NCBI GenBank assembly: GCA_964450735.1
Contig: CAYVDC010000002.1
Span: 64,703 to 128,702, forward strand
DNA: 64,000 nt
Source of the DNA: an uncultured Candidatus Saccharibacteria bacterium
GTDB lineage: Bacteria; Patescibacteriota; Minisyncoccia; Phycocordibacterales; UBA9973
Reading direction: 5' to 3'
Of the stretch, positions 13,143 through 55,671 are shown piece by piece. Each line of letters starts with the position of its first letter. Positions within the stretch are counted from its first letter, which is position 1. The position numbers were made by a program, and so were the translations under genes. Below the pieces are notes generated by a model. The model did no database searches. It was not told where the DNA came from and worked only from the letters and a program-made list of their open reading frames with translations.

Positions 13143-13361
13143 ATATATAAACTATTACTACTATTAGTCCTGTGGATTAGTGGATAACTTTTTAAAACTG
13201 ATTTCTAAAGGATATAATCATACTTTTGAAAAACATCTGTTGGGTATAACTTTTATTTTTATTTTTTCTTGAAGAAATCTAGATTTTTTATCCACACCAC
13301 TTTTTTTATTTCCTTACCTTCTGCCTCTTTCTCCACAAACTTTTCCCAAACCTTATCCACA
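13143..13361. promoter_or_regulatory. DnaA-box cluster plus AT-rich tract in the dnaA-dnaN intergenic region (candidate oriC / DNA-unwinding element)
   Basis: A head-to-tail pair TGTGGATTA-GTGGATAAC near 13171-13188, exact consensus TTATCCACA near 13288-13296 and again near 13353-13361, plus ctccacaaac-type degenerate boxes. There is a T-rich run (..ttttatttttatttttt..) near 13245-13270. Approximate coordinates. Confidence 0.6.
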
Positions 13362-14753
13362 CTATTTGAACATAATTCGAAGCTGTTCCACCTCGCTTAC
13401 AAGTTGTGGATCAGTCTTCATGTCATTTTTAATCTTGTCGCATGAGTGGATTACCGTTGTATGGTCTTTGCCTCCAAGTTTTTGGCCGATGAGTGGATAA
13501 GAAACATTGAATTCTTCACGGAGGATATACATAACCATCTGTCGAGCTTTTACTATCTCTTTGCGGCGAGTCTTTTCATAGATAGATGCTTCCTCGACAT
13601 TATAAAAATCAGCGACGATTTTAACTACTTCTTTTGAAGAAATGTTTTTCTTTGGCTTGATGCTATTTTTTATAAGGTTTTTAACCTCTGCAAGAGCCAA
13701 GGCGCGGCCTCGAACCTGCGTTTGCATGATAAGCGTGTTGAGATTTCCTTCTAGTTCACGAATATTACTCTCTACAGACGCTGCAATATATTCAAGTACG
13801 CCTTCTTCCACTGCTATTCCCTTTTCTTTGATTTTGGAACGGAGAACGGCTACGCGTGATTCATAGTCTGGTTCAATAACGTCAACGATCATGCCCTGTG
13901 AGAATCGGGATCGTAGGCGGTCTTCGAGTCCTGGGATGAAGTTAGGGTGTTTATCTGATGAAAAGATAATCTGCTTGTTTGCTTCGTAGAAAGTATTAAA
14001 GAGGTGGAACAATTCTTCCTGGCTTTTCTCCATTTTGCCGATGAATTGGATATCATCCATGATTAAAACATCGTATTTTCGGTACTTTTCTTTGAAAACA
14101 TGAGGTTTGTTGTTTTGGACAGAGTTAATATAGTCCATGGCAAACTTCTCGAGAGTAATGTAATGAACTCGTTTTTCGGGATATTTGTTTTTGACTGAGT
14201 TTCCAAGGGCCTGAATAAGGTGTGTTTTGCCGAGACCAGTGTTTCCGTAGACGAAAAAGGGATTATACGCTCGGCCTGGCTTGGCTACTATGGCCTGGGA
14301 AGCGGCATAGGCGAGTTCGTTGAATGGTCCAACGATGAATGTATCAAAAGCGTACTTTGGGTTAAGGTTATCGTCTTTGTTTATAGGGGTTTCAGCTAGT
14401 GGAAGCTCTTGGGGAGCATCGGTTTTTGGTGCATTTGCTGCTTCTGCCTGCTTGCTGATGCGCATTTCAGGCTTCATGATCATATATTCTACGGTACGAA
14501 TATGGTCGGCAATATTCATAAGTGATTTAAGAATAAGCTTATGATATTTTTGGATGAGCCAGTCTTTGACGAATTCGTTTGGTACGCCAACAAAAACGAC
14601 GCCCTCATCCTCTCGGATAACTGCAGTGTTTTTGAACCAGGTGTTAAAGTTAGCTTTCGAAACCTCTATCTCGATGTCTTTGAGGCATCGCGCCCACAGC
14701 TCTCGTGTATCGGTTACTTCCATAGTTGGCATATTATAGTACGGCTGGAACAA
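13362..14753 (-). CDS. dnaA: Chromosomal replication initiator DnaA
   Basis: AAA+ Walker A GNTGLGKTHL, Walker B VLIMDDIQF, sensor and C-terminal HTH (..EIVKARQMVMYILREEF..GQKLGGKDHTTVIHSCDKI). The first codon of the track ORF is non-ATG; the true start may be one of the ATGs 7-10 codons downstream. Confidence 0.9.
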   Translation of the reverse strand: MFQPYYNMPTMEVTDTRELWARCLKDIEIEVSKANFNTWFKNTAVIREDEGVVFVGVPNEFVKDWLIQKYHKLILKSLMNIADHIRTVEYMIMKPEMRISKQAEAANAPKTDAPQELPLAETPINKDDNLNPKYAFDTFIVGPFNELAYAASQAIVAKPGRAYNPFFVYGNTGLGKTHLIQALGNSVKNKYPEKRVHYITLEKFAMDYINSVQNNKPHVFKEKYRKYDVLIMDDIQFIGKMEKSQEELFHLFNTFYEANKQIIFSSDKHPNFIPGLEDRLRSRFSQGMIVDVIEPDYESRVAVLRSKIKEKGIAVEEGVLEYIAASVESNIRELEGNLNTLIMQTQVRGRALALAEVKNLIKNSIKPKKNISSKEVVKIVADFYNVEEASIYEKTRRKEIVKARQMVMYILREEFNVSYPLIGQKLGGKDHTTVIHSCDKIKNDMKTDPQLVSEVEQLRIMFK

Positions 14754-14774
14754 TCCCGGTACTTTACAGAATCT

Positions 14775-14803
14775 GTGGATATTGTGGGGATATAGTGGAT
14801 AAC
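14775..14803. promoter_or_regulatory. Second DnaA-box cluster immediately upstream of dnaA (autoregulatory site or oriC half)
   Basis: Three same-orientation boxes TGTGGATAT, TGTGGGGATA and GTGGATAAC within about 30 nt (approximate coordinates). Confidence 0.5.
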
Positions 14804-14868
14804 TATTTTTTGGTAGAAAAAGAAGATTGCCTTCCCGTATCCCCTCTTTTGTTCTATTATGTATTCAT

Positions 14869-16503
14869 ATGTTGAAACAACTTTGGAAGCCGGTTGATCT
14901 TTTGATCGCCTACGTCGAAAAACATCAAGGCGTAACTGTTGGCACGGGGATAGGATTACTTGCAGCGATTACTCTTCTTCGAACTTTTTTTGAAAACTAT
15001 TCAAACCCCGAACCATTTGGCGGATTTACTGCATGGTTTATTGTTCTTGGATTCTTTTTATATTACGCAGGGGTAATGCTCCTCCTGACTGCGTTTTTAA
15101 GTTTTTTGCTTAAGAAAAAAAGCAGCATAGTATATGGCGCGCTTATCCTTACTTCCCCTATCATTATTTCTGCTCCCCTTTTTGATCTCGCTGTTTCGCG
15201 AGGTGAAGGATATTGCATGTCGTATCTCGGCGACCATGGATGGTTTTTGGTCAAAGATTTCTTTACATACTTTGGCCCGATGGCAAACTGCGGCATCACT
15301 CCAGGAATCCGCTTTGAAATTATTTTGGTTTTGATTGGGATTGCGATGCTTGTGTATCGCCTTACAAAAAGTTTTTGGAAAACTGCCATTGGTGTTATAG
15401 GTACTTATACTATTCTCTTTGCAAACTTGGCGGCTTCAGGAATTATTATCACTGTATCAAAAGGTTTTGGATATGTGGACGCTAACCTTTTCTTCAGCAA
15501 GCTGCTCCATACTAGCTTGATTCCATCTATCCAGACATATGTAACAACAACAAATATTTACCTTGAAAACTATGCAGCGGGCGCAATTTTCATGGCACGC
15601 TTTTCCTGGGTTATCTGCCTGCTCGCCCTTCTTGTCGTTTGTTACCAGCAAAATAAGCTTGCATTTAAAGCTTTTTTGAGGGATTTCCGACTTGCACGCG
15701 TTATCTACTATGCGTTCCTTGCACTCTTTGGTATGCGGATCGCATACCAAATCGGCGGCTACCCATTCATTCCGCATACTTTTGCAGATATACTGGGTTA
15801 TAGTATTTTCTTTGTTGTTATTGCGCTTAACTTTACTTTCGCAGCGACTGTTAATGATATTGTTGATGTTCCGATTGATGAAGTTTCAAATAAACATCGC
15901 CCACTTATCAGCGGAGCGCTTACCGTCGATCAATATCGATCGATCGCCCTTATTCTCGGAACAATGATTGTCACCGGCTCTCTTCTTATAAATTACACGG
16001 TATTTATTTGCACAGTGTTGTTTCATATTTGTTTTTACTTTTACTCAGTTCCTCCGCTACGGCTCAAGCGTCACTTTATTCCAGGAGGAATTCTGCTTGC
16101 CCTCGCAGGACTTATTACCGTCATGTCAGGATATGGATTCTTCTCTCTTAATACTGCTTTTCAATCCTTCCCACTAAAACTTTCTATCTTTATTTTAGTG
16201 TTCCTCTTTCTGGTTGTACACATCCGCGACTTCAAAGATATCGAGGGAGATGCGAAAGAAGGCATTCAAACACTACCTGTCGTGCTAGGAGAAAAGAAAG
16301 CTCGCATTTTAATTGGGGCACTGGTTCTCATTGGAGGAATTATTACTGGTATTGGTCTGTATAAATACTTCGAAATTTTTAGCTTGGCGATTTTTGCACT
16401 CAGCGCAACATTCTTTGTTTCAATGGTGGCTCACAAAGTAGACGAAAGAATAAGTTTTGGGCTTCTCTATATACTCGCTATTTTGGCTATCATTTTCCTT
16501 TAA
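14869..16503 (+). CDS. Polytopic membrane protein with C-terminal UbiA-family prenyltransferase domain
   Basis: First ATG used (the track starts on TTG). About 300 aa of N-terminal multi-helix membrane domain, then UbiA motifs NDIVDVPIDEVSNKHRPL (first Asp-rich motif) and HIRDFKDIEGDAKEG (second Asp-rich motif). Confidence 0.7.
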   Translation: MLKQLWKPVDLLIAYVEKHQGVTVGTGIGLLAAITLLRTFFENYSNPEPFGGFTAWFIVLGFFLYYAGVMLLLTAFLSFLLKKKSSIVYGALILTSPIIISAPLFDLAVSRGEGYCMSYLGDHGWFLVKDFFTYFGPMANCGITPGIRFEIILVLIGIAMLVYRLTKSFWKTAIGVIGTYTILFANLAASGIIITVSKGFGYVDANLFFSKLLHTSLIPSIQTYVTTTNIYLENYAAGAIFMARFSWVICLLALLVVCYQQNKLAFKAFLRDFRLARVIYYAFLALFGMRIAYQIGGYPFIPHTFADILGYSIFFVVIALNFTFAATVNDIVDVPIDEVSNKHRPLISGALTVDQYRSIALILGTMIVTGSLLINYTVFICTVLFHICFYFYSVPPLRLKRHFIPGGILLALAGLITVMSGYGFFSLNTAFQSFPLKLSIFILVFLFLVVHIRDFKDIEGDAKEGIQTLPVVLGEKKARILIGALVLIGGIITGIGLYKYFEIFSLAIFALSATFFVSMVAHKVDERISFGLLYILAILAIIFL

Positions 16504-16521
16504 TCCTATTGTTGGATGCGC

Positions 16522-16554
16522 AAAAGCCTGGCCGACTTCGTCGGCCAGGCTTTT
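16522..16554. terminator. Bidirectional intrinsic terminator (UbiA-fusion gene versus yidD)
   Basis: Perfect 14-bp stem aaaagcctggccga/tcggccaggctttt around a cttcg loop, with T-runs on both strands (approximate coordinates). Confidence 0.65.
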
Positions 16555-16561
16555 GTATTTG

Positions 16562-16801
16562 CTATACAAGCGGATCGTAATGGTTTCGCTGCCAAGGATG
16601 GCACCGAGCAATTCTTTTGGCTCCGATCCAGATTCCTTTGATTGGGCCATATTTGGCAATAGCTTCTTTGGTATATTCTGAGCAAGTCGGCGTAAAGGCG
16701 CAGTTTCCTCCTCTAGTAAGGCCTAGTTTTCTTGGTAAGCCCTGGTCAGGAGAAAGGTACTTTTGGTAGAAATTAATGCAGGCAATAAGAAATGTGCGCA
16801 T
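16562..16801 (-). CDS. yidD: Membrane protein insertion efficiency factor YidD
   Basis: From the internal ATG the product is 79 aa, MRTFLIACINFYQKYLSP..GGNCAFTPTCSEYTKEAIAKYG..RCHPW (the conserved YidD CxxxPxCSxY core). The ATG overlaps the rnpA stop (TGATG-type coupling). Confidence 0.75.
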   Translation of the reverse strand: MRTFLIACINFYQKYLSPDQGLPRKLGLTRGGNCAFTPTCSEYTKEAIAKYGPIKGIWIGAKRIARCHPWQRNHYDPLV

Positions 16802-17130
16802 CAGTTTTTTGAGAAAAAGCTTGTAAATGCTCGGTTTCTGTCGATAGGAACGGCCGAAATTGCCTCTTTTTTGAGAACAAAAGCGTACATACCCGGCTTT
16901 GGGGAAACTGAAGCTAAGGCCTGACGAAGTGATGCATACCACTTACGACGTAGTGAATTACGTAAAACCGCAGTCTTTGCAATGGTTTTTGGTGCAATAA
17001 CCGCGCATCTAATGCCAGTCTCCCCCTCTTTCGTGTATCTGGCAACAAAAAAAGGCATTCCGGTCGTTTTACCACCTTTGAATAGTTGGGTGATGTCTCG
17101 GCCAGAAAGCCTTTTTTGTTTTGGAAGCAT
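16801..17130 (-). CDS. rnpA: RNase P protein component
   Basis: MLPKQKRLSGRDITQLFKGGKT..FVARYT..RCAVIAPKTIAKTAVLRNSLRRK.. (basic, RnpA-like, about 110 aa). First ATG used; the track ORF starts on GTG 10 codons upstream and would overlap rpmH. Confidence 0.7.
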   Translation of the reverse strand: MLPKQKRLSGRDITQLFKGGKTTGMPFFVARYTKEGETGIRCAVIAPKTIAKTAVLRNSLRRKWYASLRQALASVSPKPGMYAFVLKKEAISAVPIDRNRAFTSFFSKN

Positions 17131-17140
17131 AGGTTTATGG

Positions 17141-17275
17141 TTAAACAGTGAGTTTCGCACGTCCTTTTCGGCGGCGGCGTGCTACGACTTTTTTACCCGC
17201 GGTTGTTGCCTTTCGGACGAGGAAACCGTGTGTAGTCGCGCGCTTTTTCTTTTTTGGCTGATACGTGAATGACAT
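17141..17275 (-). CDS. rpmH: 50S ribosomal protein L34
   Basis: The internal ATG gives [44 protein letters not shown] (44 aa), a near-consensus L34. Confidence 0.85.
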
Positions 17276-17361
17276 GGAGAGCATAATAGAACATTTTTGT
17301 AAGAATTGCAATAGGCACGAAGCACCTTTCAAAATACCCCTCTTTCAGGTACAATGGCTCT

Positions 17362-18081
17362 ATGCGATACCTATGGAATGTAGTGCTCTACCAGCCCCTC
17401 TTCAACCTCCTTATTTTTATAACAAACCTTATGCCGGGCAAAGATGTCGGTCTTGCTGTTATCTTGCTTACTATTCTTGTTAAGCTTGCCCTTTATCCCC
17501 TTACTAAAAAATCTATCGAAAGCCAGGTTGCCATGGCTCAGATGCAACCGGAACTTGAACGCATCAAGAAAGAATTCCCTGATAAGCAAGAACAAGCAAA
17601 GCGGACAATGGAATACTATAAAGAGCAGAAATCAAGTCCATTTGCAGGATGTCTGGTTATGCTTATCCAGCTTCCGATCATTTTCGCCCTCTATTACGTT
17701 TTCCTTGGTGGATTCACTGACATGTCCTATCTCTACTCATTCGTTGCAAATCCTGGCGTCATCAACATGAACTTCCTTGGATTCCTCGATATTTCAAAGC
17801 CGCATATTGTACTTGCAGTACTAGCTGGCGCCTCGCAGTTTCTCCAAATGAAAATTTCGTTTAGTGGTCAAAAGCCAGCATCAGCTTCGGTTGGTGGCAT
17901 GGATATGACCAAAATGATGCAGACACAGATGCAGTACGTGCTCCCTATTGTTATTATCTTTGCTGGATTGAAATTCTCAGGTGCAGTCGCCCTTTATTGG
18001 ATTACGAGCAATTTGATCGGTGCGCTTCAGGAATATTACATTCGTAAAAAGCTTGCCCCTATTCATATTAAGCTTGTCTAA
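17362..18081 (+). CDS. yidC: Membrane protein insertase YidC (short form)
   Basis: 239 aa with 5 predicted TM helices; conserved YidC/Oxa1 core (..ILLTILVKLALYPLTKKS.., ..LGFLDISKP.., C-terminal basic tail). It is immediately followed by jag, the canonical neighbourhood. Confidence 0.85.
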   Translation: MRYLWNVVLYQPLFNLLIFITNLMPGKDVGLAVILLTILVKLALYPLTKKSIESQVAMAQMQPELERIKKEFPDKQEQAKRTMEYYKEQKSSPFAGCLVMLIQLPIIFALYYVFLGGFTDMSYLYSFVANPGVINMNFLGFLDISKPHIVLAVLAGASQFLQMKISFSGQKPASASVGGMDMTKMMQTQMQYVLPIVIIFAGLKFSGAVALYWITSNLIGALQEYYIRKKLAPIHIKLV

Positions 18082-18093
18082 TATATATCACGT

Positions 18094-18582
18094 ATGCATA
18101 CCACACAGATTGAAAAAATCGTTTCAGAATTCTTCAAAGAAACCGGTATTCATTCGGGAGATGTTTCTTTTTTGTACGACGAGGACACTAAAACTATGTG
18201 GTGCTCGATCTCTGTAGCAGATGGACGGTTGCTTACTGGCAAAAATGGAGAAACGCTTGCAGCAATCAATCACCTCATTCGTAAAATTGTTGATAAAAGC
18301 CTTGGTTTCAGCGAAAGTGATAAATCCTCCGTCAATATTATTGTCGATATCAATGGTTTTCAAAAAAAGCGCGTTGACAGCATCAAAGCAGTTGCCCACA
18401 TGATGGCTGAACGGGCCCGATTCTTTAAATCAAGCATTGAAGTTGATCCAATGACTCCATTTGAACGTCGTATTGTTCACGAATTCCTCTCTACTATGCC
18501 TGATCTCAAGACTGAATCTGCCGGAGAAGGACAGAAGCGACATGTTGTCATTAAATATATCGGAAATCAAAACACAATCTAA
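18094..18582 (+). CDS. jag: Jag/KhpB-like RNA-binding protein (KH + R3H domains)
   Basis: R3H motif FERRIVHEFLSTMPDLKTESAGEGQKRHVVIKY at the C-terminus; gene order yidC-jag. Confidence 0.75.
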   Translation: MHTTQIEKIVSEFFKETGIHSGDVSFLYDEDTKTMWCSISVADGRLLTGKNGETLAAINHLIRKIVDKSLGFSESDKSSVNIIVDINGFQKKRVDSIKAVAHMMAERARFFKSSIEVDPMTPFERRIVHEFLSTMPDLKTESAGEGQKRHVVIKYIGNQNTI

Positions 18583-18628: not shown

Positions 18629-20254
18629 TTAGATTGCTGTTTCTATTTTCGGAGTAAGATCGTATTGCCACAGTATGTCTGTATTTCTATTTATATAGTA
18701 GAGATATTTGTTTGTTGCATCTACATAAAGTCGAACACCATCTGTCGCATCTCCTCCTTCTGTGATAGGGCTAAAGAGGCGCTGATTATCATATACTCCG
18801 GTTGCATCAATAAGCCAAAATGAGTCATTGAACGGTACAGTGCCCTGGTACCAATCATCAGGATATATATGACCAGCTGGAATTGCTGTCGGTACTGCAC
18901 AATAGATGCTTAAGCTATTGGTTGACCAAACGCATTTTTCAGGCAGCGTATTCAATCCAAGGCCTCGAGTATTTTTTGTTTCAATATTCATGATAGCTAG
19001 GGCTGGACCACTTGCCGTGTTTCGGCTGATAAGCAGATATTTGCCGTCCGGGCTTCCGAGTGTCGTCAGTCCAGTGATCGGTCCAGCTACTTTTGTGAAG
19101 TCTCCTTTTGTAATGTCAGTGCTATAAGCAAAACCTGTAGCATATCCAGTCGCTTTGATTGTAAATATGAGCTTATTGGTGGTATTCCATTGGCTGAGCC
19201 AGCCAGAGAATTGTGATGAAAAGACACGTTGTTGATTTTTGCCATCAAGATCGCTTGTAAACCCAAGGAGGCTGTTTGCGGAAGGTAGTAAGAAAAGGAT
19301 ATGTTTGCCATCGGGAGAAATTGAAAGATCGGTTATGTTTTTTGGCATGGAAAGCACTGCTAGCTCTGGGAGTGAGTCTCCCCCGACAATTGGTTCAGTG
19401 ACTTTCCCAATAAGTGTATCAATTGTGGTGTTGTCTGCTTGGAGGGATCGAAGGAATACTGTTTTGCCTTGATCTGCAAAGAACGCTTCATGTACTCGAG
19501 GAATCGTCGTGCTAGAGAGGCGGCGTGTCGCGAGTGTGTCTGCGAATGCGTCAAAAATATTGCTTGTTCCTCGTACCACATATCGAACAACGTCTTTGAG
19601 TACTGTTTCTGGAGTTTCCACGGGGTATGTACAGACAAATCCAGCTTGGATTTTTTTCAGAGTTAATTCGTCCATTACGCCATTCCCTTTGGTTAGATTC
19701 TGTGGTTTGAGAATGTCATCAGTAAAAAGTTCTTGGAATGTCGTAACTGCTTTTGCCGTAGTTGGTCCATAGGTAGTTCCCTCCTTGCCAGGAGAACCTG
19801 CTCCCGTTGCCGCTATTTGCGTCTGTGGGCACTGATTCAAGAACTTTTGGAGCTCTGTTACGTCTGCGCCTTTGTCGCCGGATTTGAGTGTTTTAGAAAA
19901 TGCGTACGATGTTGTTACTGTCACTTGTTTTGGTGCCGGTATTGAGTTCGGATCGACAGGGAATTGTTTTTGGAGTGTAGTATATCCAGTAACTGGGGTC
20001 TCAGATACTTTTCGCAAGCGAGGAGTTGGTCCTGTTACTGGAGGATTCTGGTCAGGATTACTTGGTTCCCCCGTCGAGCCAGTGCCGCCTGGCGTTACTT
20101 GGGGAGTTCCAGGTCCAAATGGAAATAGGTCTCGGATAGTAATCTGTTCGCCAGGGTGATTTTTCTGGGCATTTTTGTAAAGAAAAAAGAACAAAGCAGT
20201 GAATGCTAGAATGATCGCGATGATTATGAGAATGGTGAATGATTTTTTCGACAT
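18629..20254 (-). CDS. Membrane-anchored peptidoglycan-binding beta-propeller protein (TolB-like repeats), last gene of the T4SS-like block
   Basis: N-terminal TM helix (FTILIIIAIILAFTALFFFLY); Pro/Thr-rich linker; a PG_binding_1-like segment (LKSGDKGADVTELQKFLNQ...TTYGPTTAKAVTTFQELF); then repeated SPDGKxxLF-type beta-propeller blades (SISPDGKHILFL, GSPDGKYLLIS). Confidence 0.6.
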   Translation of the reverse strand: MSKKSFTILIIIAIILAFTALFFFLYKNAQKNHPGEQITIRDLFPFGPGTPQVTPGGTGSTGEPSNPDQNPPVTGPTPRLRKVSETPVTGYTTLQKQFPVDPNSIPAPKQVTVTTSYAFSKTLKSGDKGADVTELQKFLNQCPQTQIAATGAGSPGKEGTTYGPTTAKAVTTFQELFTDDILKPQNLTKGNGVMDELTLKKIQAGFVCTYPVETPETVLKDVVRYVVRGTSNIFDAFADTLATRRLSSTTIPRVHEAFFADQGKTVFLRSLQADNTTIDTLIGKVTEPIVGGDSLPELAVLSMPKNITDLSISPDGKHILFLLPSANSLLGFTSDLDGKNQQRVFSSQFSGWLSQWNTTNKLIFTIKATGYATGFAYSTDITKGDFTKVAGPITGLTTLGSPDGKYLLISRNTASGPALAIMNIETKNTRGLGLNTLPEKCVWSTNSLSIYCAVPTAIPAGHIYPDDWYQGTVPFNDSFWLIDATGVYDNQRLFSPITEGGDATDGVRLYVDATNKYLYYINRNTDILWQYDLTPKIETAI

Positions 20255-20258
20255 AGTA

Positions 20259-21320
20259 TTACCATTGTTTTATGTGATAGTGATCAGATTCTTTGACAAA
20301 AACTGTAGATCCAACGGTGTAAAAGCCGGCTTGATTCATTGGGCATCCATCTGAAGAGGTTCCATCAATCCAATGACCACATACTTTTGTTGTTAATCCT
20401 ACGATATATGCACTTAATTCTGGCGTTATGGAAAGGTCTACGATGCCACTGCCAATTTCGTGTGATTTGTGAAGCCAGCATTCAGTACCGCCAGTGACAA
20501 CAATCTTGCAGTTTGCTTGAGCTGCTGCAGAAAGGTTGCCGCAAACCTTGGTTCGCAGGTCGCCCAGCTTGAGAAGAGCTGTATTTCCAAGTTTGTATAC
20601 TGTTGTGCAGTTTGATGCGCCAACAGTAGGACAATTACTTTTATTAACGGTGACTCCAACGCCAAGCAGTCTGCTGCGATAGTCAGCATCATTATTGTTG
20701 ATCACTGGACGGCCTCCCCATGGAGTATCTTTGTCGAGAGCAACACCGTCTGCCGCTGCAGCATTGATGCTGGTTTGTGAGCAGTTAATATTAACAACTA
20801 CTTGCTGTCCATTGATTGTTGCATTTTTAGGTACATACGGTGCGGGCAGATCATCTGCGCCAGTTGTTACAACAGCCAGTCCTTTGGGAGGATCAAGGCG
20901 AATTTCGATGAGTGCTGGGTTAATCGTGTTAAGCAGAAGCCATGATACGAGAGCCAAGATGAGGCCAAATATTGCATTTGAAATCATTTCTTTGCCACCC
21001 TCTTTTTTGGAGATAGCATCTGTTGTCATGTATTGAACACCACCCAAGACAATCATGATAACCCCCAATACTCCGATGATGCTGATGATAACTTTGATCG
21101 CGAGGTTAATATAATCAGCCGCTGTGGTTACCTTCGGGTCGTACTTGTCATAAACTTGTCCTCCCCCCATTGGTAGTGGCTCTAGGAGGCAATACTGTCC
21201 AGAACCAGTTTCTTGGCAATCAGCAGATGCTTTTTGTGGTGCTAGCACTCCAAAACCAAGGCTGGTAGCCAGGAGTATTCCGAAGACTGTAAGCGTTATG
21301 TATGAAGCAAGTTTACGCAT
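20259..21320 (-). CDS. Pilin-like (TrbC/VirB2-type) protein with C-terminal Cys-rich extracellular domain
   Basis: Signal peptide (..LAPQKASA), then two hydrophobic helices flanking a short polar loop (..DYINLAIKVIISIIGVLGVIMIVLGGVQYMTTDAISKKEGGKEMISNAIFGLILALVSWLLLNTINP..), the topology of VirB2/TrbC pilins. This is followed by about 200 aa containing about 10 Cys. Confidence 0.45.
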   Translation of the reverse strand: MRKLASYITLTVFGILLATSLGFGVLAPQKASADCQETGSGQYCLLEPLPMGGGQVYDKYDPKVTTAADYINLAIKVIISIIGVLGVIMIVLGGVQYMTTDAISKKEGGKEMISNAIFGLILALVSWLLLNTINPALIEIRLDPPKGLAVVTTGADDLPAPYVPKNATINGQQVVVNINCSQTSINAAAADGVALDKDTPWGGRPVINNNDADYRSRLLGVGVTVNKSNCPTVGASNCTTVYKLGNTALLKLGDLRTKVCGNLSAAAQANCKIVVTGGTECWLHKSHEIGSGIVDLSITPELSAYIVGLTTKVCGHWIDGTSSDGCPMNQAGFYTVGSTVFVKESDHYHIKQW

Positions 21321-21322
21321 GA

Positions 21323-22336
21323 TTATTTTAGATTAATGGTAATGCTCTTTTCTGCATCAAGGAATAATTTTGAAATATTTTCTATTCGAAGCTTCAGGTT
21401 GGATATTCCTTTTGTTTCTCCACTTTTCAATGTCAGCATGTTTGCGGTCACTGGTGTCTGCACGTCGCTTCCGTTGATTGTCCAGCTATATGCAAGTTGA
21501 GATGAAAGCGGATTTGCTGGAGAGAAGAAGTATGGGATTGCTAAAATTGTCTTTTCGGCCGTCGTGACATCGTAGTTTGTACCTAATTCATGATTCCAGT
21601 CGATGCCATTAATCGGGTCTCGATTGTACATGAGGATTTTGGGTTTGAAGACGTTTACTGTTGCTGTTCCTATCGCAGTAGATCCTGAGGAATTGTCTTG
21701 CCCTATTACTTCGATTTTTTCTGATGGATTCAAATAGTCTTGGGCGAATAAAAGGATGCTCTTGTTGTATCCAGAGTTGTTTGATAGAACGTTGTCATTT
21801 TTTTTCCATCTAAAAACGTATTTAGTTATGTCTAGCGTTCCTGCCCCGTTGTTGATTTGAGGTATGGCTAGTACGCGGATAACCCCTTCTGAGCTTGGGA
21901 GAGCTCTTCCTTTGTAAAAAGGAGGAGTGTATGAGTCAGCACCTTCCCATACTATGTTAATTTCTGATGGATTAAAAACAAAGTTTTTTTGCAGCGTTTC
22001 TCCGCTTGCAAGAAGCATCATGAGGGTAACCGTGGTTCGTTCACCAATCCCTTTGGTGGTAAAGGTGAATTTATATGCTCCTGTTTGCGACAATACTGTC
22101 TTGCCGTCTATTTTCCAAATGAAATAGGCACGAGAAACATTTGTTAGATAGCTTTCTGCTGTAATAGTGACTTCTTGAAAAGGTCCTGGTACTTCTGGGT
22201 TTGCTGAAAAAGAAATATCGTTGTCGTTGATTTGAGCTGCCTGTTCTGGAGATGATTGTGCGAGTGCAATAATAGGAGAAAACGCCACTCCTACGAGAAG
22301 CAGCCCAACGAGCATTAGTGCATGAATGCGAGTCAT
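21323..22336 (-). CDS. Secreted beta-rich hypothetical protein (338 aa)
   Basis: Start moved to the internal ATG, which gives a clean signal peptide MTRIHALMLVGLLLVGVAFSPIIALAQS; the track ORF extends 55 codons upstream into the VirB4 gene. Repetitive Thr/Asn-rich beta-strand pattern. Confidence 0.5.
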   Translation of the reverse strand: MTRIHALMLVGLLLVGVAFSPIIALAQSSPEQAAQINDNDISFSANPEVPGPFQEVTITAESYLTNVSRAYFIWKIDGKTVLSQTGAYKFTFTTKGIGERTTVTLMMLLASGETLQKNFVFNPSEINIVWEGADSYTPPFYKGRALPSSEGVIRVLAIPQINNGAGTLDITKYVFRWKKNDNVLSNNSGYNKSILLFAQDYLNPSEKIEVIGQDNSSGSTAIGTATVNVFKPKILMYNRDPINGIDWNHELGTNYDVTTAEKTILAIPYFFSPANPLSSQLAYSWTINGSDVQTPVTANMLTLKSGETKGISNLKLRIENISKLFLDAEKSITINLK

Positions 22337-22400
22337 ATTCACCTGTATAGTATACCGTGAAAAGAATAAATACAGAACCCTTTTTGTGGGTTTCTCGGCT

Positions 22401-24236
22401 TTATTTTCCCTCGGCTTGTTCGTGTTCTTGTTTAGCTTTTCGGATCGCAAGGATTTGGCTCGGATCCGAGGTAACAATCTGTTCCTCGGTATAGGACGCA
22501 ATAACTTTGATAGCTACGTGCTTAAGACCGGCAAAGAAGATGCCTTCCCCTACGCCTGATTCAAGAAGCAGGTACTTTTCCTCATCCGTCAGATGGAAGA
22601 CCTTTTGAAGGTTATCAATCGAGCTCGGCGACTGTTTGAGGAGGATTTGAATTGAAGAGTTTGAAACGATCGGAACACCGTATGGGCTCTTCATAAAGTC
22701 GTCGATGTTTTGAGTAATTGTTGAAAGTCCGAGATAGTATTTTCGTCCTCGTTTTGCGATGCCGAACAAGAATGACGCAGTATCTTCGGATTTCATCATG
22801 ATCCAGGCCTCGTCCACAACCAAGAGGCGCTTTTTGAGAGTACGGCGCACAGCGGTCCAGATATGGTGAGTAACGATGTACATAGCAACTGGCTTCAAGT
22901 CTTCTTCCATATCTCGGATCGAAAAGACGACAAGGCGCTTGTTGATATCAACGTTGGTTGGCTGGTTCAAGAATGTTGACCACGAACCTTTAGTAAACTT
23001 TTGGAGGCGCTGCAGCAACGACTCAGAGCCTTCCATACCAGCAACCACCATTTCAAAGTCAGAAAGAAGCGGAGGTTCTGCATTTGTAAGGTCACTGTCA
23101 GGAGTGATATCTTTGAGGGCGTAAGTTTCGGTGATCGCGCGGTCGACGATAGCATCTTCTTCTGGGGTCAATCCCCCGAGCATGATGCGGAACAATCCGA
23201 CAAGCTCGATAACGTTCTTGCGGATAACATCGGCGGTTGTCTCGTCTTCGGTTGCAACTGGCAAGTCAAATGGATTGATGTGGTGGTCAGATGAAAGTGA
23301 AATATTAAAATATCGTCCGCCTACCGCTTCAGCTAAATATTCATATTCTCGTTCTGGGTCGATAACGATCACGTCAGTATCGAACATGAGCGTTCGGAGA
23401 ATTTCAAGTTTTGTGGTGAAGGACTTTCCGGAACCAGAGGTTGCAATAGTAACCGAGTTGTAGTTTTCGAGAGAGAATCGATCAAAAATGATCAGTCCTG
23501 AGTTGTGGCGGTTAACTCCGTAGAGAATTCCCTTGTCTGAGGTAAGATCGAATGAAACAAATGGGAAGATGCTCGAAAGAGGCTCGGAATTGAGCTTCTG
23601 GTGGATAGAAAGCATGTCGTTTCCAATTGGAATAACGCTCTTGAAGCCTTCTTCCTGTTGGAAAAGAGCTGGTTTGAGGTACACTAGTTTGGATTCGAGG
23701 ATAGATTTGATCTCATTCTCTGTTTTGAAAAGCTCCTGTTCGTCATCGGCGTAGATAGTGATATAAAGACCGACATCGAACATTTTCTGCTGAGCCTGCA
23801 TCAGGCTGTTGCGGAGGTTTTCCAAGTCATTAACCGCGGTATCAAGCATGGGGTCTCGAACGAGACCCTTCCCCTCGCGCACATTGATCTGGCTCTGCAC
23901 CTCGGCTACTTTTTTCTGGAAGTCGCGAAGAATCTTTTCTGTTTCGATTGGGTGTATGAAAATGGAAACATCAAAAATTTTATCGAGGTTAATGACGGGA
24001 GAGAACCAGTTGTCAGTTAAAAATCGTGGGTAGGAAATAACGAAAAATGTTCGAGCAACCTTTGATCCAAGATTGATCTGTTTCGGGTCTATCTTGAGCG
24101 CTGAAGGCGCAATGATGTCGCGAAATTCAAGCGTCGCAGCCTCGTAAATTTCAGACGGCAAAACAGGCATAATGCCGCTTGCCGTCTGCGTCATGCCCGA
24201 GTTCTTTTTTCCAAATAATGCGTCGAAGATTCCCAT
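22401..24236 (-). CDS. virB4: VirB4/TraC/TrbE-family type IV secretion ATPase, middle and ATPase domains
   Basis: Walker A TIATSGSGKSFTTK; the VirB4-characteristic DPEREYEY (DPxGEY-like) motif right after it; Walker B LLVVDEAWIMM; 611 aa with about 260 aa before Walker A (..VISYPRFLTDNWFSP..SIFIHPIE.. resembles the VirB4 middle region). Confidence 0.75.
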   Translation of the reverse strand: MGIFDALFGKKNSGMTQTASGIMPVLPSEIYEAATLEFRDIIAPSALKIDPKQINLGSKVARTFFVISYPRFLTDNWFSPVINLDKIFDVSIFIHPIETEKILRDFQKKVAEVQSQINVREGKGLVRDPMLDTAVNDLENLRNSLMQAQQKMFDVGLYITIYADDEQELFKTENEIKSILESKLVYLKPALFQQEEGFKSVIPIGNDMLSIHQKLNSEPLSSIFPFVSFDLTSDKGILYGVNRHNSGLIIFDRFSLENYNSVTIATSGSGKSFTTKLEILRTLMFDTDVIVIDPEREYEYLAEAVGGRYFNISLSSDHHINPFDLPVATEDETTADVIRKNVIELVGLFRIMLGGLTPEEDAIVDRAITETYALKDITPDSDLTNAEPPLLSDFEMVVAGMEGSESLLQRLQKFTKGSWSTFLNQPTNVDINKRLVVFSIRDMEEDLKPVAMYIVTHHIWTAVRRTLKKRLLVVDEAWIMMKSEDTASFLFGIAKRGRKYYLGLSTITQNIDDFMKSPYGVPIVSNSSIQILLKQSPSSIDNLQKVFHLTDEEKYLLLESGVGEGIFFAGLKHVAIKVIASYTEEQIVTSDPSQILAIRKAKQEHEQAEGK

Positions 24237-24237
24237 G

Positions 24238-24885
24238 TTATTGTTGCAACTTTATTGAACTTGATATTTCGCCTGGGTTGAAGACCTTGTAGTACAGCTC
24301 GATCGCTTCTTCTGTTCCAACCTGCACTGATCGTACGCCAACTCGAGTAAGTCCTTGCTGTACGACGCCGATGCGTTGGTCGAGCTGCGTGCGATGCTCC
24401 TCAAAGCTGATGAGCGCATCGCTCTTTGCTCCCTGACTTGGGGCTTTGGTTCCGCCAAACAATGATTTGCTCAGAGTTCCAGCAGATCCAAGCGGCGAAG
24501 AGCTATATGGGACTACGACAATAAATGTCTTTGTCATGATGGCAACTTCATTGGTGAAATTTTCTATGAAGTGCGTGTACTCTTCTGTCTGAATCTTGAG
24601 CAGTGGTTCGAGCTGCGCCTTTTTGCGTTCTTTGAGAAGTGCGATGTATGGGCGGATATCAAGACGGCGAGACTGTACAACGATCTGTACTGAGAAGTCG
24701 AGCGAGTTCAAAAAGTTTTGGAACTGCATGATCGTTCCCTGCTGTTCGTCTGCAGACTTGAGTGAAAGGTTAACTGACGAAGCAAGCAAAAGAGCGCGCA
24801 TGCTGCCATCATTCAAAATAATGATGCCGTCGCGCACCTCCCTGATCGGAACGAACTCTTGAGTTGCTTTTGCGTTGAGTGCCAT
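24238..24885 (-). CDS. VirB4 N-terminal domain-like protein (separate ORF abutting the ATPase ORF)
   Basis: 215 aa, ..FVPIREVRDGIIILNDGSMRALLLASSVNLSLKSADEQQGTIMQFQNFLNSLDFSVQIVVQSRRLDI.. resembles the N-terminal region of Gram-positive-type VirB4 proteins. Its stop is separated by a single nucleotide from the ATG of the 611-aa ORF, in a different frame. Confidence 0.5.
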   Translation of the reverse strand: MALNAKATQEFVPIREVRDGIIILNDGSMRALLLASSVNLSLKSADEQQGTIMQFQNFLNSLDFSVQIVVQSRRLDIRPYIALLKERKKAQLEPLLKIQTEEYTHFIENFTNEVAIMTKTFIVVVPYSSSPLGSAGTLSKSLFGGTKAPSQGAKSDALISFEEHRTQLDQRIGVVQQGLTRVGVRSVQVGTEEAIELYYKVFNPGEISSSIKLQQ

Positions 24886-24914: not shown

Positions 24915-25337
24915 TTAGCTCTTCTTGTTCTTGTCCATATCAAGCACATCGAGGCTCCACGAAAGATCCTTGAGCTTAGAATTGGAGAGTTTGGGTATAT
25001 AGTTGAAATTCGCCAAGCTGTCCTCTTCTTTCTTTTCCTCGGGCTTCTTTTTCTTGGCTTGTTTTTGCTTCCATACGTACAGCTTTGCCCCAATATAGTA
25101 ATTGAATGCTGATTCCATTATAGAAATGAACGGGCGATTGTTGACCTTGTAGAATGTGAGTGCGAGAGCAAGCGTTGCGATAGGAATAATGAGCGGAATC
25201 GCAATATAGAATGGCAAGAGTTTCCAGAGCACAAAAGATCCTCCTGCTCCTCCAAGGAGATAGATGAATTGCTTGAACGTGAACGGTCCAAAGATTTTAT
25301 CCTCCACATCGATAAACTGAGGAACTTGAAATTGCAT
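24915..25337 (-). CDS. VirB3/PrgI-like small membrane protein
   Basis: 140 aa with two adjacent TM helices (..FIYLLGGAGGSFVLWKLLPFYIAIPLIIPIATLALALTFY..) then a basic tail. It sits directly upstream of the VirB4 ORFs, the VirB3-VirB4 (PrgI-PrgJ) arrangement. Confidence 0.45.
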   Translation of the reverse strand: MQFQVPQFIDVEDKIFGPFTFKQFIYLLGGAGGSFVLWKLLPFYIAIPLIIPIATLALALTFYKVNNRPFISIMESAFNYYIGAKLYVWKQKQAKKKKPEEKKEEDSLANFNYIPKLSNSKLKDLSWSLDVLDMDKNKKS

Positions 25338-26262: not shown

Positions 26263-29200
26263 TTAGTGGTGTGCTCCGTGATCGTCGTGTCCGCCTCCAT
26301 GGTCATCATGGCCTCCTCCCCCACCACCTCCGCTGCCTACTTTGGTAAAGGCATCAAAGAATCCAGCGCTCGGTCCCTTGTATGTGTCTTTCGGATGCGC
26401 ATGATCGTGCTTCTCTGTGCTTATTGCATGGTGAACAGCATCATGTTGAACATCACCAAGGTTTAATGCCTGAGGTAAATGTCGGACTTGGCTCGCTACT
26501 GCTGCAAGTCCACCTGCGAGTACTCCAATACCAATTGTTGCAGGTCCTCCCACAACCGCGCCAGCTAGTCCTGCAGCCAAACCTGCTTTGAGCCCAGTCT
26601 TTATGTCGTTGCCCATATTTCTGTATGCTCGACTCCATCGATCGTTGCTGCTATGATCATGATCCATTTCTCCAAGATCTTTGATGTTTCCAAGTTCGTC
26701 TCGTTTCATACCTGTAATTCCGAGGCCAGTGCCTTTCATCAAGTTATGATGGTACTCTTTCATGCGTGCAACCTTGATGTTTTCAAGATTTTTCTGCATC
26801 TTATCCAAACCTCTCGAGGATTCAACTTCCTCAAGGGTAACCTTTCTGACGGATGAAGTCCCATCAGCCTTAAGAACCTCAAGTGATTTACCTTCATCTT
26901 CTTTCGTAAGAGCTCGAGTTGTAGGATTGCCCTTGGCATCTTTACCTGTTATCACTTTTTCTCCTGAACCCTTCTTCATTTCGCGGAGTTTCTGCTTGTC
27001 AGTGTTTACCTCACTTTGTTTAGCAGCAACATCCGCGTTGATCTTAGCTTTCTCTTTAGTCTTATTTTTAGGAAGAGCTCTTTCTTGGGCTTTTAATTTT
27101 TCTATCTCCTCTTGTTTTCTGGATATCTTGTCTTCTTGGTTAGAAATATCTGTTTCTTTTGCTTCTATCTTTTTCTTTTCCTCATCGTATTGTTTCTTGT
27201 CGTATCCGCTTCCAAAGATCTTTGCCTTTCTCTCCATTTCAACTTTTTCTCGCTCAACATGTGCGTCATATCCGCCAGCTCGTGCTCCCGTGCTGAAGTC
27301 TGCACCAGTAACTGACTTGAGAGCGCCTGCTCCCATGTTCATGTTTACCCCAGTTGCTTTTGAGAGACCGTTTCCGAGACTAGTCTGGCGAACATCAAAA
27401 CTAGATCTCTTGAGCTTGTCAGCAGCAAGGAGCTGTCCTTGAGCCTTGAATTTTTCCCACTTTGTAGATGGGATTTGTCCTGAAGCGATACCTTTGAGTT
27501 TGTCATCGTTAGCAACTCGATTTGCCATGCCTCCGATTGTTCGTGCACCCAGTGCGGCCGCTCCGCCAGTGATAGCCATAGCTCCCAATCCTGCGCCTGC
27601 TGCAACGATACCTGCAAATGCCGCACCAAATTCACCCGCCATATCCTCGGCGATCTTTTTGGCTGCCATAAGGAGTCCGACGACAATCATCGTTGGGAGG
27701 AGAATAGCAACGAGGAATGTCACCCAGTTGCCACTATTTGCATTGGTGACGGCAGCAATTGTCGTGCCCATTAGTCCTTTGTCTCCCCCTCCTACAAGGT
27801 TTACGATCAAGTAAAGGAAGAAGAAAAATATTGGTGCGTTGAAACATGCCTTCATAAAACCAGAAAGCCATTGATGCCAGCCGAGCTGCTTGAGATTTTT
27901 CTCGAGCCCTGGAACGATGCTAGTCACAAACGCTAGTGGCGCAAAAATCATCGAGAACCAGATAACGCCGATACGCCCAGCAAAGAATGCCGCGCACATA
28001 AAGAATATCCACGCCATGATCAAGTTCAGTATGAACGAGATAAGTAGGATAGTAAGAATACTACCTGTTCCCATATCTGCTTTCCCCAAGCTTTCTGGAC
28101 TCAAGAGTTTCTGTGGCTGAACACCTTCGATGATTGCTGCTGAGATAGGCTGCTCGACTGGACCTGCTTTTGTTGCCGCAACGTTTCCTTTTGAGGAAAT
28201 ATTCATTGCATTGTAAAAGACACGCGATAAGACGTTTGATGTATCAACCATGATCCTACAGAAGAACAGACTGAAGTTGATGATGATGGCTATAATGATA
28301 ACTTGGGCGACGATCTTTTTGGTGTCGAAATGGTGCAAGGAAAGAACTAATCCGATCGCTGCGTAGAGAAGAATAAAGATGAAAAAGATGTTAGAAATGT
28401 CACGAACCAAACTCCAGCCGTTTTCTACGAATGATGCGATCCCCGCGCCGTTTACCCCCTGGCCATAAATGGTGCTACCAAGCGATACTGCAGCAAATGC
28501 GTCAAAAAGCGAACCTGTTAACCGGTTAATTCGGACTGCTACTGGAACAAGAAGGTTGTTGAAGAGTTCGGCAAAACAACCGCTCACATCGAGACTTGGA
28601 AGGATTGCTCCCTTCTCCACCCAAAAACACTTCAAGTGATCTGCAATCTGTTTGTTTCCCTGAGTTGCATTTACTACTTGGTTTGTTTCCGCATATGCCT
28701 GTGTAACTTCATTACTGATATCGGTATTTGTTTCTGCAGCCGCAGCGTCGGTTAGGGTGGTAATTTTTTGGACTGGACCGAGAGCAACAGAGTGAACGCC
28801 AGCTATGGTGTCTTCCTTGAGGGCGAGCTGAACATAATAGTCTTTGCCAGGGAGGATTTGTGGACCGCTGATACGAATTGGCGCAGCGGTAACTGTTGTT
28901 TGATTAAAGAAACGATGGCCAGGATCTAGTCTCCAGAGGTATACACCGATGTTGGTTGCAAGTGTTTTACCTTGGGAAAAAACGAAAGCATTGCCTTGTT
29001 TTGGAGTAAGACTAGTATTGGCTCCCCCGCCGCTGACCTGGAGGGGTTGAACTGTATAGACAAGATCACCGACTACTGTAGAAAAAGGAGCTCCTTGGAA
29101 ATCTGCAACGATATCCGCTGTGCTAGTACCAACAAGCAAAAAGATTCCTTCTGATATGCTATTTTCGAGCCTATCTCTATCTAGAATTTTGTCCCATGCT

Positions 29201-29475
29201 CCCAAGTCATCGCCATAGCTATCAAGCTTATCTACAACTGAACCTGAATCTTGTGCCGCAGGGGTCGCCAAGATCTTTATATCGGCAACAATGTTGTGTG
29301 CGTCGGAATGAAGCACCATGTTGCCACCAATAAATTTAAAGAGATTGCTCTGTACTTCTGTTACTGGAAAACCGGTAAATTCAGCAGCGTAAGCTTTCTG
29401 TGTTCCGCCAAAGGGAAAAATCATACTAGCGAGTATGAACAGCAACAATATTCCTGCGCGGATTTTGCTTCGCAT
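26263..29475 (-). CDS. VirB6/TrbL-like giant polytopic membrane protein (1070 aa) with His-rich C-terminal tail
   Basis: Signal peptide (..GGTQKAYA). About 370-aa extracytoplasmic domain. At least 6 TM helices (..IFFIFILLYAAIGLVLSL.., ..ILTILLISFILNLIMAWIFFMCAAFF..FSMIFAPLAFVTSIVPG.., ..WVTFLVAILLPTMIVVGLLMAA..). Gly/Ala-rich segment. About 300 aa of K/E-rich coiled coil. Terminal GGGGGGGHDDHGGGHDDHGAHH. Confidence 0.5.
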   Translation of the reverse strand: MRSKIRAGILLLFILASMIFPFGGTQKAYAAEFTGFPVTEVQSNLFKFIGGNMVLHSDAHNIVADIKILATPAAQDSGSVVDKLDSYGDDLGAWDKILDRDRLENSISEGIFLLVGTSTADIVADFQGAPFSTVVGDLVYTVQPLQVSGGGANTSLTPKQGNAFVFSQGKTLATNIGVYLWRLDPGHRFFNQTTVTAAPIRISGPQILPGKDYYVQLALKEDTIAGVHSVALGPVQKITTLTDAAAAETNTDISNEVTQAYAETNQVVNATQGNKQIADHLKCFWVEKGAILPSLDVSGCFAELFNNLLVPVAVRINRLTGSLFDAFAAVSLGSTIYGQGVNGAGIASFVENGWSLVRDISNIFFIFILLYAAIGLVLSLHHFDTKKIVAQVIIIAIIINFSLFFCRIMVDTSNVLSRVFYNAMNISSKGNVAATKAGPVEQPISAAIIEGVQPQKLLSPESLGKADMGTGSILTILLISFILNLIMAWIFFMCAAFFAGRIGVIWFSMIFAPLAFVTSIVPGLEKNLKQLGWHQWLSGFMKACFNAPIFFFFLYLIVNLVGGGDKGLMGTTIAAVTNANSGNWVTFLVAILLPTMIVVGLLMAAKKIAEDMAGEFGAAFAGIVAAGAGLGAMAITGGAAALGARTIGGMANRVANDDKLKGIASGQIPSTKWEKFKAQGQLLAADKLKRSSFDVRQTSLGNGLSKATGVNMNMGAGALKSVTGADFSTGARAGGYDAHVEREKVEMERKAKIFGSGYDKKQYDEEKKKIEAKETDISNQEDKISRKQEEIEKLKAQERALPKNKTKEKAKINADVAAKQSEVNTDKQKLREMKKGSGEKVITGKDAKGNPTTRALTKEDEGKSLEVLKADGTSSVRKVTLEEVESSRGLDKMQKNLENIKVARMKEYHHNLMKGTGLGITGMKRDELGNIKDLGEMDHDHSSNDRWSRAYRNMGNDIKTGLKAGLAAGLAGAVVGGPATIGIGVLAGGLAAVASQVRHLPQALNLGDVQHDAVHHAISTEKHDHAHPKDTYKGPSAGFFDAFTKVGSGGGGGGGHDDHGGGHDDHGAHH

Positions 29476-55581: not shown

Positions 55582-55671
55582 GGTAAAGGTGTTTTGCCGT
55601 ATTTTAACACATTTTATATAAAAAGTCAATAAACATTGTGCGACATCATTGTATCCCTTATACTTATATAT

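Follow-up and report, generated by a model that had tools for sequence, protein, structure and literature searches.

Bacteria of the Candidate Phyla Radiation (CPR), or Patescibacteria, encode type IV secretion systems (T4SSs) in gene clusters that contain VirB2-like pilins; such pilins, their arrangement in arrays, and the essentiality of the system in one strain are already on record (PMC10633639, PMC12102498, PMC12857230). In a cultivated CPR bacterium, the T4SS is among the few systems shown to be indispensable for epibiotic growth (PMC10633639), and both the role of the CPR T4SS and the way in which a pilin-bearing T4SS works in a monoderm are questions raised in the literature (PMC12857230). 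A comparative survey found genomes with VirB2 homologs to be mostly without VirB1 (PMC12102498). Here, we analyze a gene from a T4SS cluster in a 64,000-nucleotide (nt) stretch of DNA of an uncultured CPR bacterium (contig CAYVDC010000002.1; the whole 64-kb stretch is called the window below). The open reading frame (ORF) at 20259..21320 on the minus strand starts with ATG and encodes 353 amino acids (aa), in which a VirB2-like two-helix hairpin precedes a C-terminal domain (hereafter, the C-domain) of an unannotated family. We favor, with a confidence only a little better than even, the reading that the product of this gene is the only VirB2-like (PF18895) component of a Paceibacteria T4SS and bears a C-terminal wall enzyme with VirB1-like function.

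Like the PF18895 pilins described from Patescibacteria (PMC12102498, PMC10633639, PMC12857230), the protein combines a predicted signal peptide with a two-helix hairpin and a hidden Markov model (HMM) score above threshold, and its gene lies beside VirB4, PrgI, and VirB6 homologs in a dnaA-proximal cluster, with no recognisable relaxase or coupling protein nearby. It differs from those pilins as described, which are short pilins and pilin arrays with no mention of enzyme fusions, in having a 195-aa C-terminal globular domain. The closest functional parallels are the VirB1-like wall enzymes PrgK (pCF10), TraG (pIP501), and TcpG (pCW3), which are encoded in T4SS operons, membrane-anchored, and extracytoplasmic, as is predicted here; moreover, relatives of our gene in the same genomic slot carry SLT and NlpC/P60-CHAP-like domains, as VirB1-like hydrolases do. 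Unlike PrgK, TraG, and TcpG, which have a single transmembrane (TM) segment, the protein would be anchored by a VirB2-like hairpin, and its C-domain falls in no recognised hydrolase family. We found no description of a fusion between a pilin and a wall enzyme in the full-text literature searched, a scope that leaves subscription journals outside and within which absence is no proof. What we did not find reported is a large domain family on a known T4SS component, as part of a general pilin-plus-wall-enzyme architecture. The novel CPR pilus of a 2026 preprint (10.64898/2026.03.03.709456) was considered and set aside as an unrelated, chaperone-usher-like system.

The ORF begins 2 nt past the stop of the upstream gene and ends 4 nt ahead of the start of the downstream gene, both of which are co-directional with it. 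Because it has homologs (210 at E ≤ 1e-3, with the nearest eleven full-length ones at 54-66% identity) and a conserved gene order, we consider it a real gene and not a chance ORF. AlphaFold2, run with a 60-sequence alignment, modeled the full protein at a mean predicted local distance difference test score (pLDDT) of 87.9, with a leader helix (residues 2-25), a short beta-hairpin (43-60), two long helices (67-99 and 103-133), a disordered linker (140-153; pLDDT <50), and a compact C-terminal domain (pLDDT ~97). Kyte-Doolittle hydrophobic segments cover residues 4-28, 66-100, and 111-138. The layout of the protein is as follows:

21222..21320, minus strand: predicted Sec signal peptide, residues 1-33 (MRK plus a hydrophobic core, cut between ...KASA and D), from the hydrophobic segment 4-28 and the AlphaFold2 helix 2-25

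21126..21221, minus strand: mature N-terminal segment, residues 34-65, with C35, C44, and the Y-x-L-L-E-P-L-P motif (43-50), from the alignment and the AlphaFold2 beta-hairpin 43-60

20907..21125, minus strand: VirB2-like two-helix hairpin (T4SS_pilin module), residues 66-138, ending in L-N-T-I-N-P, from PF18895 and AlphaFold2

20841..20906, minus strand: flexible Pro-rich linker, residues 139-160, from AlphaFold2 pLDDT and variability in the 60-sequence alignment

20262..20840, minus strand: C-terminal Cys/His-rich globular domain, residues 161-353, of an unannotated family; predicted extracytoplasmic metallo-hydrolase

20436..20492, minus strand: G-G-T-E-C-W-x-H-x2-H-x7-D motif, residues 277-295 (E280, H284, H287, D295), from invariant columns

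20274..20291, minus strand: E-x2-H-x-H motif, residues 344-349 (E344, H347, H349), with H347 and H349 invariant

The original prediction had proposed a VirB2/TrbC-type pilin topology, to be judged by HMM similarity of the N-terminal 110 residues to pilins, and this similarity was found: Pfam PF18895 (T4SS_pilin) matches residues 69-133 with 32.4 bits (gathering score 26.6), and the named hydrophobic stretches are present. The predicted order of a cleavable signal peptide and a two-helix hairpin likewise agrees with the hydrophobic segments and the AlphaFold2 helices; cleavage itself would occur at a site that we place from the A-x-A pattern. Among 64 relatives, 61 match PF18895, and 36 match PF04956 (TrbC/VirB2) at a lenient cut-off of E ≤ 10 (best E = 1.3e-5). 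NCBIfam NF045849, a pilin-like family of Mycoplasma integrative and conjugative elements, matches below its family cut-off (E = 4.7e-4). Two conserved motifs flank the hairpin, Y-x-L-L-E-P-L-P ahead of helix 1 (residues 43-50; window 21171-21194) and L-N-T-I-N-P after helix 2 (residues 130-135; window 20916-20933). The alignment of 60 homologs shows Y43, L46, and P48 of the first motif to be nearly invariant, and L130, T132, I133, N134, and P135 of the second to be conserved at 90% or more. Related forms of both motifs are present in bare pilins, and the motifs may be processing or assembly signals. A search with a profile of the pilin module revealed no second pilin-like ORF in the window. 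At 353 aa, with a separate 195-aa domain, the protein is much larger than a single-domain pilin, whose precursor has about 100-150 aa.

The C-domain is predicted to be an autonomous, confidently folded unit: when modeled separately (residues 155-353), it reached a pLDDT of 96.7 and a predicted template modeling score of 0.91. The extension had been credited with about 10 cysteines, a count that is correct for the whole protein and too high for the extension alone, which has 8 (C180, C230, C238, C260, C271, C281, C314, and C326); the other two, C35 and C44, precede the hairpin. Across 64 homologs, C230 occurs with C238 in 63, and every C314 is accompanied by C326 and every C260 by C271, a co-occurrence that fits paired cysteines. 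Topology and the 8 cysteines together suggest that the domain is extracytoplasmic.

A profile built from 38 trimmed domains and searched against 1.84 billion cluster representatives retrieved 2,348 of them at E ≤ 1e-3 and 1,666 at E ≤ 1e-10, where 2,348 counts clusters at 50% identity. The C-domain is almost always located at the C-terminal end of these proteins, which are 280-600 aa long. A pilin module is present in 233 of the 245 CPR-type members examined, and in all 233 it comes first and the C-domain last. The original prediction had called such an extended subunit unusual for T4SS pilins; this holds in comparison with classical VirB2, TraA, and TrbC, but not within Paceibacteria, where the number of clusters indicates that the fused form is widespread.

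Actinobacteria are hosts of some CPR bacteria. They also hold stand-alone, signal-peptide-bearing homologs of the C-domain, about 165 aa in length and common in this group (Micromonospora, Streptomyces, Catellatospora, Kribbella). All 246 actinobacterial matches are labeled 'hypothetical' in NCBI and JGI and have no Pfam domains (P0141, P0142, P0270-P0388; loci L083, L084). The homology of the actinobacterial and CPR C-domains is secure from profile-profile alignment (hhalign Prob 99.3%, E = 5e-20). No conserved neighborhood was found around the actinobacterial stand-alone homologs, and their gene context is uninformative.

In alignments of 60, 64, and 38 sequences (~25-60% identity), the C-domain columns T239, G277, E280, H284, H287, D295, H347, and H349 are invariant, and C230, C238, C271, and E344 are at least 90% conserved; the whole protein has 5 histidines, of which 4 are invariant. 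With the spacing G-G-T-E280 ... H284-x2-H287-x7-D295-x48-E344-x2-H347-x-H349, these residues look like a metal-hydrolase site. A set of residues of this kind (E/H/H/D/H/H) is characteristic of catalytic metal sites and atypical of binding surfaces, and we therefore take the domain to be more probably an enzyme than a binder.

The landmarks of this site run in the same order as those of LAS enzymes (MEROPS M15, including 1LBU and VanX/VanY, and the Hedgehog N-domain): a beta-strand that ends in G-G-x-x, an upstream His, H-x6/7-D (x7 in the C-domain, x6 in SHH-N and 1LBU), and, close to the C-terminus, E-x2/3-H-x-H. The C-terminal H-x-H / E-x-x-H signature of these enzymes is present as E344-x2-H347-x-H349. 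The motifs are collinear with those of the N-domain of human sonic hedgehog (SHH-N; T-E-G-W ... H134-x5-H140-x6-D147-x28-E176-x3-H180-x-H182) and of the Streptomyces albus zinc DD-carboxypeptidase 1LBU (G-G-F-R138 ... H154-x6-D161-x33-H195-x-H197). The sequences used are identical to PDB chains 6E1H_C and 1LBU_A, with computed numbering, and the assignment of their zinc ligands and catalytic residues follows the LAS literature. In the AlphaFold2 model of the C-domain, helices and strands succeed one another (helix-strand-loop-strand-helix-strands) in an order compatible with the LAS fold, and hhalign puts the three motifs in register with LAS members over 80-108 columns, at scores that are not significant. 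Compared with LAS enzymes, the C-domain has an additional subdomain at its N-terminus and additional putative disulfides. In the actinobacterial branch, the spacing is the canonical H-x-x-G-x-x-x-D (H-x6-D) and the C-terminal motif is E-x2-H-W-D. The profile of this branch matched SHH-N with 8.5 bits in hmmsearch (E = 8e-5 for that single comparison, with about eight targeted comparisons of this kind made; hhalign P = 0.024), a score reached by 2 of 20,000 shuffles and by 0 of 1,100 natural decoy ORFs. A LAS-like zinc peptidase is the best lead for the C-domain, and the statistics behind it are only suggestive.

We regard the comparison of the same slot across genomes as the strongest functional evidence for the predicted wall-enzyme role. 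In 79 loci from a scan of GTDB species representatives, retrieved with patterns from this subfamily (and hence giving proportions that are a biased census), the pilin-like gene holds one strictly syntenic slot, with VirB4, TrsD, PrgI, and dnaA nearby. A 392-aa-type gene lies immediately upstream in 74 loci (median gap 0-6 nt), and a 541-aa-type gene follows the pilin-like gene directly, at a median gap of 6-9 nt, in each of the three classes of slot content. These classes are the C-domain (28 ORFs), other extensions (42, with total lengths of 244-734 aa), and bare pilins (12). The bare pilins, which are the extension-free orthologs that the original prediction had suggested seeking, have 130-153 aa (e.g. 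L048 with 130 aa, L052 with 135 aa, and L040 with 137 aa) and stop 10-25 residues past the LNTINP-type motif, i.e. within the linker region.

Among the 42 proteins with other extensions, Pfam identifies NlpC/P60 in 5, SLT in 4, YkuD in 3, VanY in 3, and Peptidase_M15_4, Amidase_5, Lysozyme_like, and Phage_lysozyme2 in 1 each. Domains unrelated to the wall are limited to an N-terminal Ig-like Pur_ac_phosph_N (3) and an Annexin (1). Fusions with VanY, YkuD, and SLT also occur among database matches to the N-terminal module. Judged by these assignments, each recognisable enzymatic partner of the pilin module is a predicted peptidoglycan-acting enzyme. The 353-aa protein itself contains none of the recognised lytic domains (SLT, CHAP/NlpC-P60, LytM) that are present in same-slot relatives. 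In four loci (L030, L037, L045, L077), two pilin-like genes stand in tandem and differ in their C-terminal extension, an arrangement that recalls the pilin arrays of Saccharimonadia; of the two in L045, one carries the C-domain and the other a different extension. A conserved N-terminal module with many alternative C-terminal enzymes at one locus is also a feature of polymorphic toxins. In contrast to those systems, no variable immunity gene lies downstream, and the recognisable variable enzymes act on the wall instead of being nucleases or deaminases; a polymorphic toxin with an immunity gene was ruled out, as the same 541-aa-type gene follows in all three classes.

Several observations weigh against a wall-enzyme role, and against a LAS-type enzyme in particular. 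Function read from same-slot replacement is guilt by association, drawn from loci whose retrieval was biased to this subfamily, and about half of the 42 other extensions are themselves unannotated. Pfam finds no C-domain family in the protein, in 64 members at E ≤ 10, or in family consensus sequences, and the domain is unmatched in NCBIfam and PHROGs. Sequence searches of the PDB with the C-domain (a single sequence and three profiles) were negative, as was tblastn against 50,697 phage genomes; a PDB-wide profile search does not rank Hedgehog; and Foldseek of the C-domain model against the PDB and BFVD gave no LAS enzyme or other match at E < 0.06 (best E = 0.07). With the CPR profile, hhalign was not significant against 1LBU (P = 0.15), SHH (0.2), or VanY (0.11-0.12, using the VanY domains of sister pilin fusions), nor do we count as significant the P of 0.024 that the actinobacterial profile gave against SHH. 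Furthermore, the CPR branch has H287-x7-D295, one residue longer than the H-x(3-6)-D of LAS enzymes, and the invariant E280 takes the place of the M15 Arg (G-G-T-E versus G-G-F-R138 of 1LBU). Given that the CPR profile yields no significant alignment, we do not class the C-domain as a member of M15/LAS.

If the protein is indeed a VirB2-like T4SS component with a wall enzyme attached, it would act as follows. It would be exported by Sec and lose its signal peptide, after which the two hydrophobic helices would form a membrane hairpin whose two ends face outward, as the topology of VirB2 suggests. The 195-aa domain, stabilised by disulfides, would then be held within the wall zone beside the T4SS channel by a flexible linker of ~25 residues. 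There, the H284/H287/D295/H347/H349 site, which would most likely bind zinc as LAS/Hedgehog-DD-peptidase enzymes do, would cleave peptide bonds of peptidoglycan, with E344 as the candidate base. The domain would thereby supply the VirB1-like opening of a wall for the T4SS, be it the cell's own wall, that of the host cell, or both, an activity for which Gram-positive T4SSs rely on separate membrane-anchored hydrolases (PrgK, TraG, TcpG). The candidate enzyme is encoded within the T4SS operon, and its exposure on the outside would follow from topology and cysteine content.

The same architecture could instead belong to an enzyme-decorated pilus, in which VirB2-like modules polymerise outside the cell and the C-terminal enzyme of every subunit is displayed along the filament, which would probe the host and degrade its wall; the choice of enzyme (the new domain, NlpC/P60, SLT, VanY, YkuD, and others) would change from lineage to lineage to match the chemistry of the host wall. 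Known VirB2 and TraA pili have both termini outside, and a C-terminal domain on a flexible linker is topologically possible in such a filament. The cluster has no other pilin-like gene, and the high turnover of C-terminal enzymes at one slot, together with the tandem genes, resembles host-directed diversification. In the only CPR T4SS for which this was tested, the pilin genes proved essential, and the existence of a pilus has been put forward (PMC10633639, PMC12857230). However, a filament of the PF18895 family is reported in none of three studies (PMC10633639, PMC12102498, PMC12857230), the last of which treats it as a possibility. A 22-kDa domain on each subunit would also be sterically demanding, the gene beside the variable domain is conserved and not a variable immunity gene, and our data are equally compatible with a membrane-resident monomer. 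We consider such a pilus unlikely; if real, the filament would be an 'enzymatic drill' with which the wall of the host is opened where the two cells meet, and so a new pilus class and a mechanism for the access of CPR epibionts to their hosts. The original prediction had favored yet another role for the extension, that of an adhesin or receptor-binding module, i.e. a non-catalytic Cys-rich domain attaching the T4SS or pilus to the host surface. A predicted extracytoplasmic, disulfide-rich, globular domain at the end of a linker, matching no known enzyme family, would suit this role, and ligand activity is known for LAS-fold proteins, Hedgehog-N among them. Binding surfaces normally vary, however, and the invariant residues are for that reason the signature of a catalytic metal site: the four His, the Asp, and the Glu, as well as the Glu conserved at 90% or more, persist in very divergent members (the E/H/H/D/H/H constellation is kept to ~25% identity), including the stand-alone actinobacterial proteins. 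The same-slot replacements, moreover, are peptidoglycan enzymes and not lectins or Ig adhesins, and on these grounds we consider the adhesin improbable.

Alternatively, the product might be a pro-protein that is cut after L-N-T-I-N-P or in the linker, so that a short pilin in its mature form and a separate secreted enzyme or effector arise from one precursor. Fused and bare pilins both have the LNTINP-type motif where the hairpin ends, and the bare ones stop shortly after it; the linker is disordered in the AlphaFold2 model; and classical TrbC and VirB2 pilins undergo C-terminal processing. Against this, no protease was identified in the cluster, and packing at the helix end explains the conservation of the motif equally well; we give the pro-protein as little credence as the adhesin. 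Finally, the hairpin could be a plain two-TM anchor for a housekeeping wall enzyme with no part in the T4SS, given that two hydrophobic helices are a low-information feature and that the cluster is chromosomal and beside housekeeping genes. This explanation seems to us very improbable in view of the PF18895 score above the curated threshold, the strict synteny in the T4SS operon across 79 species with gaps of 0-9 nt, and the bare versions in the same slot.

In gene content and position, the cluster to which the gene belongs agrees with a chromosomal, origin-proximal, Gram-positive-type (MPF-FATA-like) T4SS, and a T4SS placed near the origin has been described for Patescibacteria (PMC12102498). 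The annotated genes of the cluster and of the adjoining block are listed below:

9243-11774: class A penicillin-binding protein

12045-13142: dnaN

13362-14753: dnaA

14827-16503, plus strand: UbiA-family prenyltransferase

18629..20254, minus strand: downstream partner gene (541 aa: TM segment, Pro-rich linker, PG_binding_1-like segment, TolB/PD40-like beta-propeller)

21323..22501, minus strand: upstream partner gene (337-392 aa, N-terminal TM segment, weak PKD-like match; PKD_3 E = 1.8e-5)

22401-24236, minus strand: VirB4-like ATPase, 611 aa (P-loop_TraG E = 1.3e-27)

24238-24885, minus strand: TrsD/TraC-like protein, 215 aa (weak, sub-threshold matches to TrsD and to the VirB4 N-terminal region)

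24915-25337, minus strand: PrgI/VirB3-like protein (PrgI E = 3.8e-9)

26263..29475, minus strand: VirB6-like candidate, a 1070-aa polytopic membrane protein (weak NF045848 match, MMCAP2_0566 conjugal transfer, E = 0.021)

The VirB4-like ATPase is encoded two genes upstream of the pilin gene, a placement conserved in 76 of 82 loci. In the window, the intervening 392-aa ORF (21323-22501, minus strand) has TTG as its start codon, which gives it a 101-nt overlap with the 3' end of virB4. If translation begins instead at the internal ATG at 22336 (MTRIHALM...), the protein has 337 aa, and because this form fits the length of the 341-aa ortholog in locus L001, the TTG start is probably wrong. In the downstream 541-aa protein, PG_binding_1 is matched at E = 1.9e-4 (22 bits, cut-off 23) and the TolB propeller at E = 1.8e-6, in addition to a PD40 match. 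The order PrgI - TrsD/TraC-like - VirB4-like is common to loci L001 and L003, and the L001 ortholog of the 215-aa protein carries the TraC-like family PF26593. VirB4 function seems to be split over two genes (24238-24885 and 22401-24236), and the split is conserved in both of these loci. The 1070-aa protein shows several hydrophobic segments in its translation and has a counterpart at the same position in L001 and L003; it also contains a long Lys/Glu-rich coiled-coil-like region and a His/Asp/Gly-rich tail (…HDDHGGGHDDHGAHH), and matches no Pfam family. A 272-aa protein is encoded on the minus strand between the PrgI/VirB3-like and VirB6-like genes, and unannotated proteins of 957 aa and 292 aa are encoded beyond the latter on the same strand.

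Downstream of the 541-aa gene follow jag/R3H, yidC, yidD, the UbiA-family prenyltransferase gene, dnaA, dnaN, and the gene for the class A penicillin-binding protein, so that the T4SS cluster adjoins the window block 12045-18582 (dnaN to jag/R3H). The presence of the class A penicillin-binding protein indicates that the organism makes peptidoglycan. The nearest GTDB genomes are labeled Candidatus Paceibacterota, Nomurabacteria, Zambryskibacteria, and similar, with a best match of 64% identity; the genome of the window itself does not belong to the GTDB representatives scanned. Rfam reported no family at its gathering score anywhere in the window.

Elsewhere in the window, about 24 kb away and outside the T4SS cluster, a protein with LysM and Peptidase_M23 domains (45709-46923, plus strand; E = 3e-29) is a wall enzyme of LAS type. 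Large ORFs without a Pfam family are located at 36170-38983 (937 aa, rich in low-complexity and His-rich stretches), 40143-43505 (1120 aa), 43518-45065 (515 aa), and 2048-4555 (835 aa). A tyrosine recombinase (55636-56643, plus strand; Phage_integrase E = 1e-38) could be XerC/D-like or mark a mobile element.

Should the C-domain prove to be a wall enzyme on a VirB2-like T4SS component, the scarcity of VirB1 in genomes that have VirB2 would find a simple answer for Paceibacteria: wall remodelling would be fused to the pilin-like protein. The analysis also defines a large unannotated family of candidate hydrolases, with a clear set of residues to mutate. The question of what the CPR T4SS touches would then become a testable one, namely whose peptidoglycan the C-domain cuts, and at which bond.

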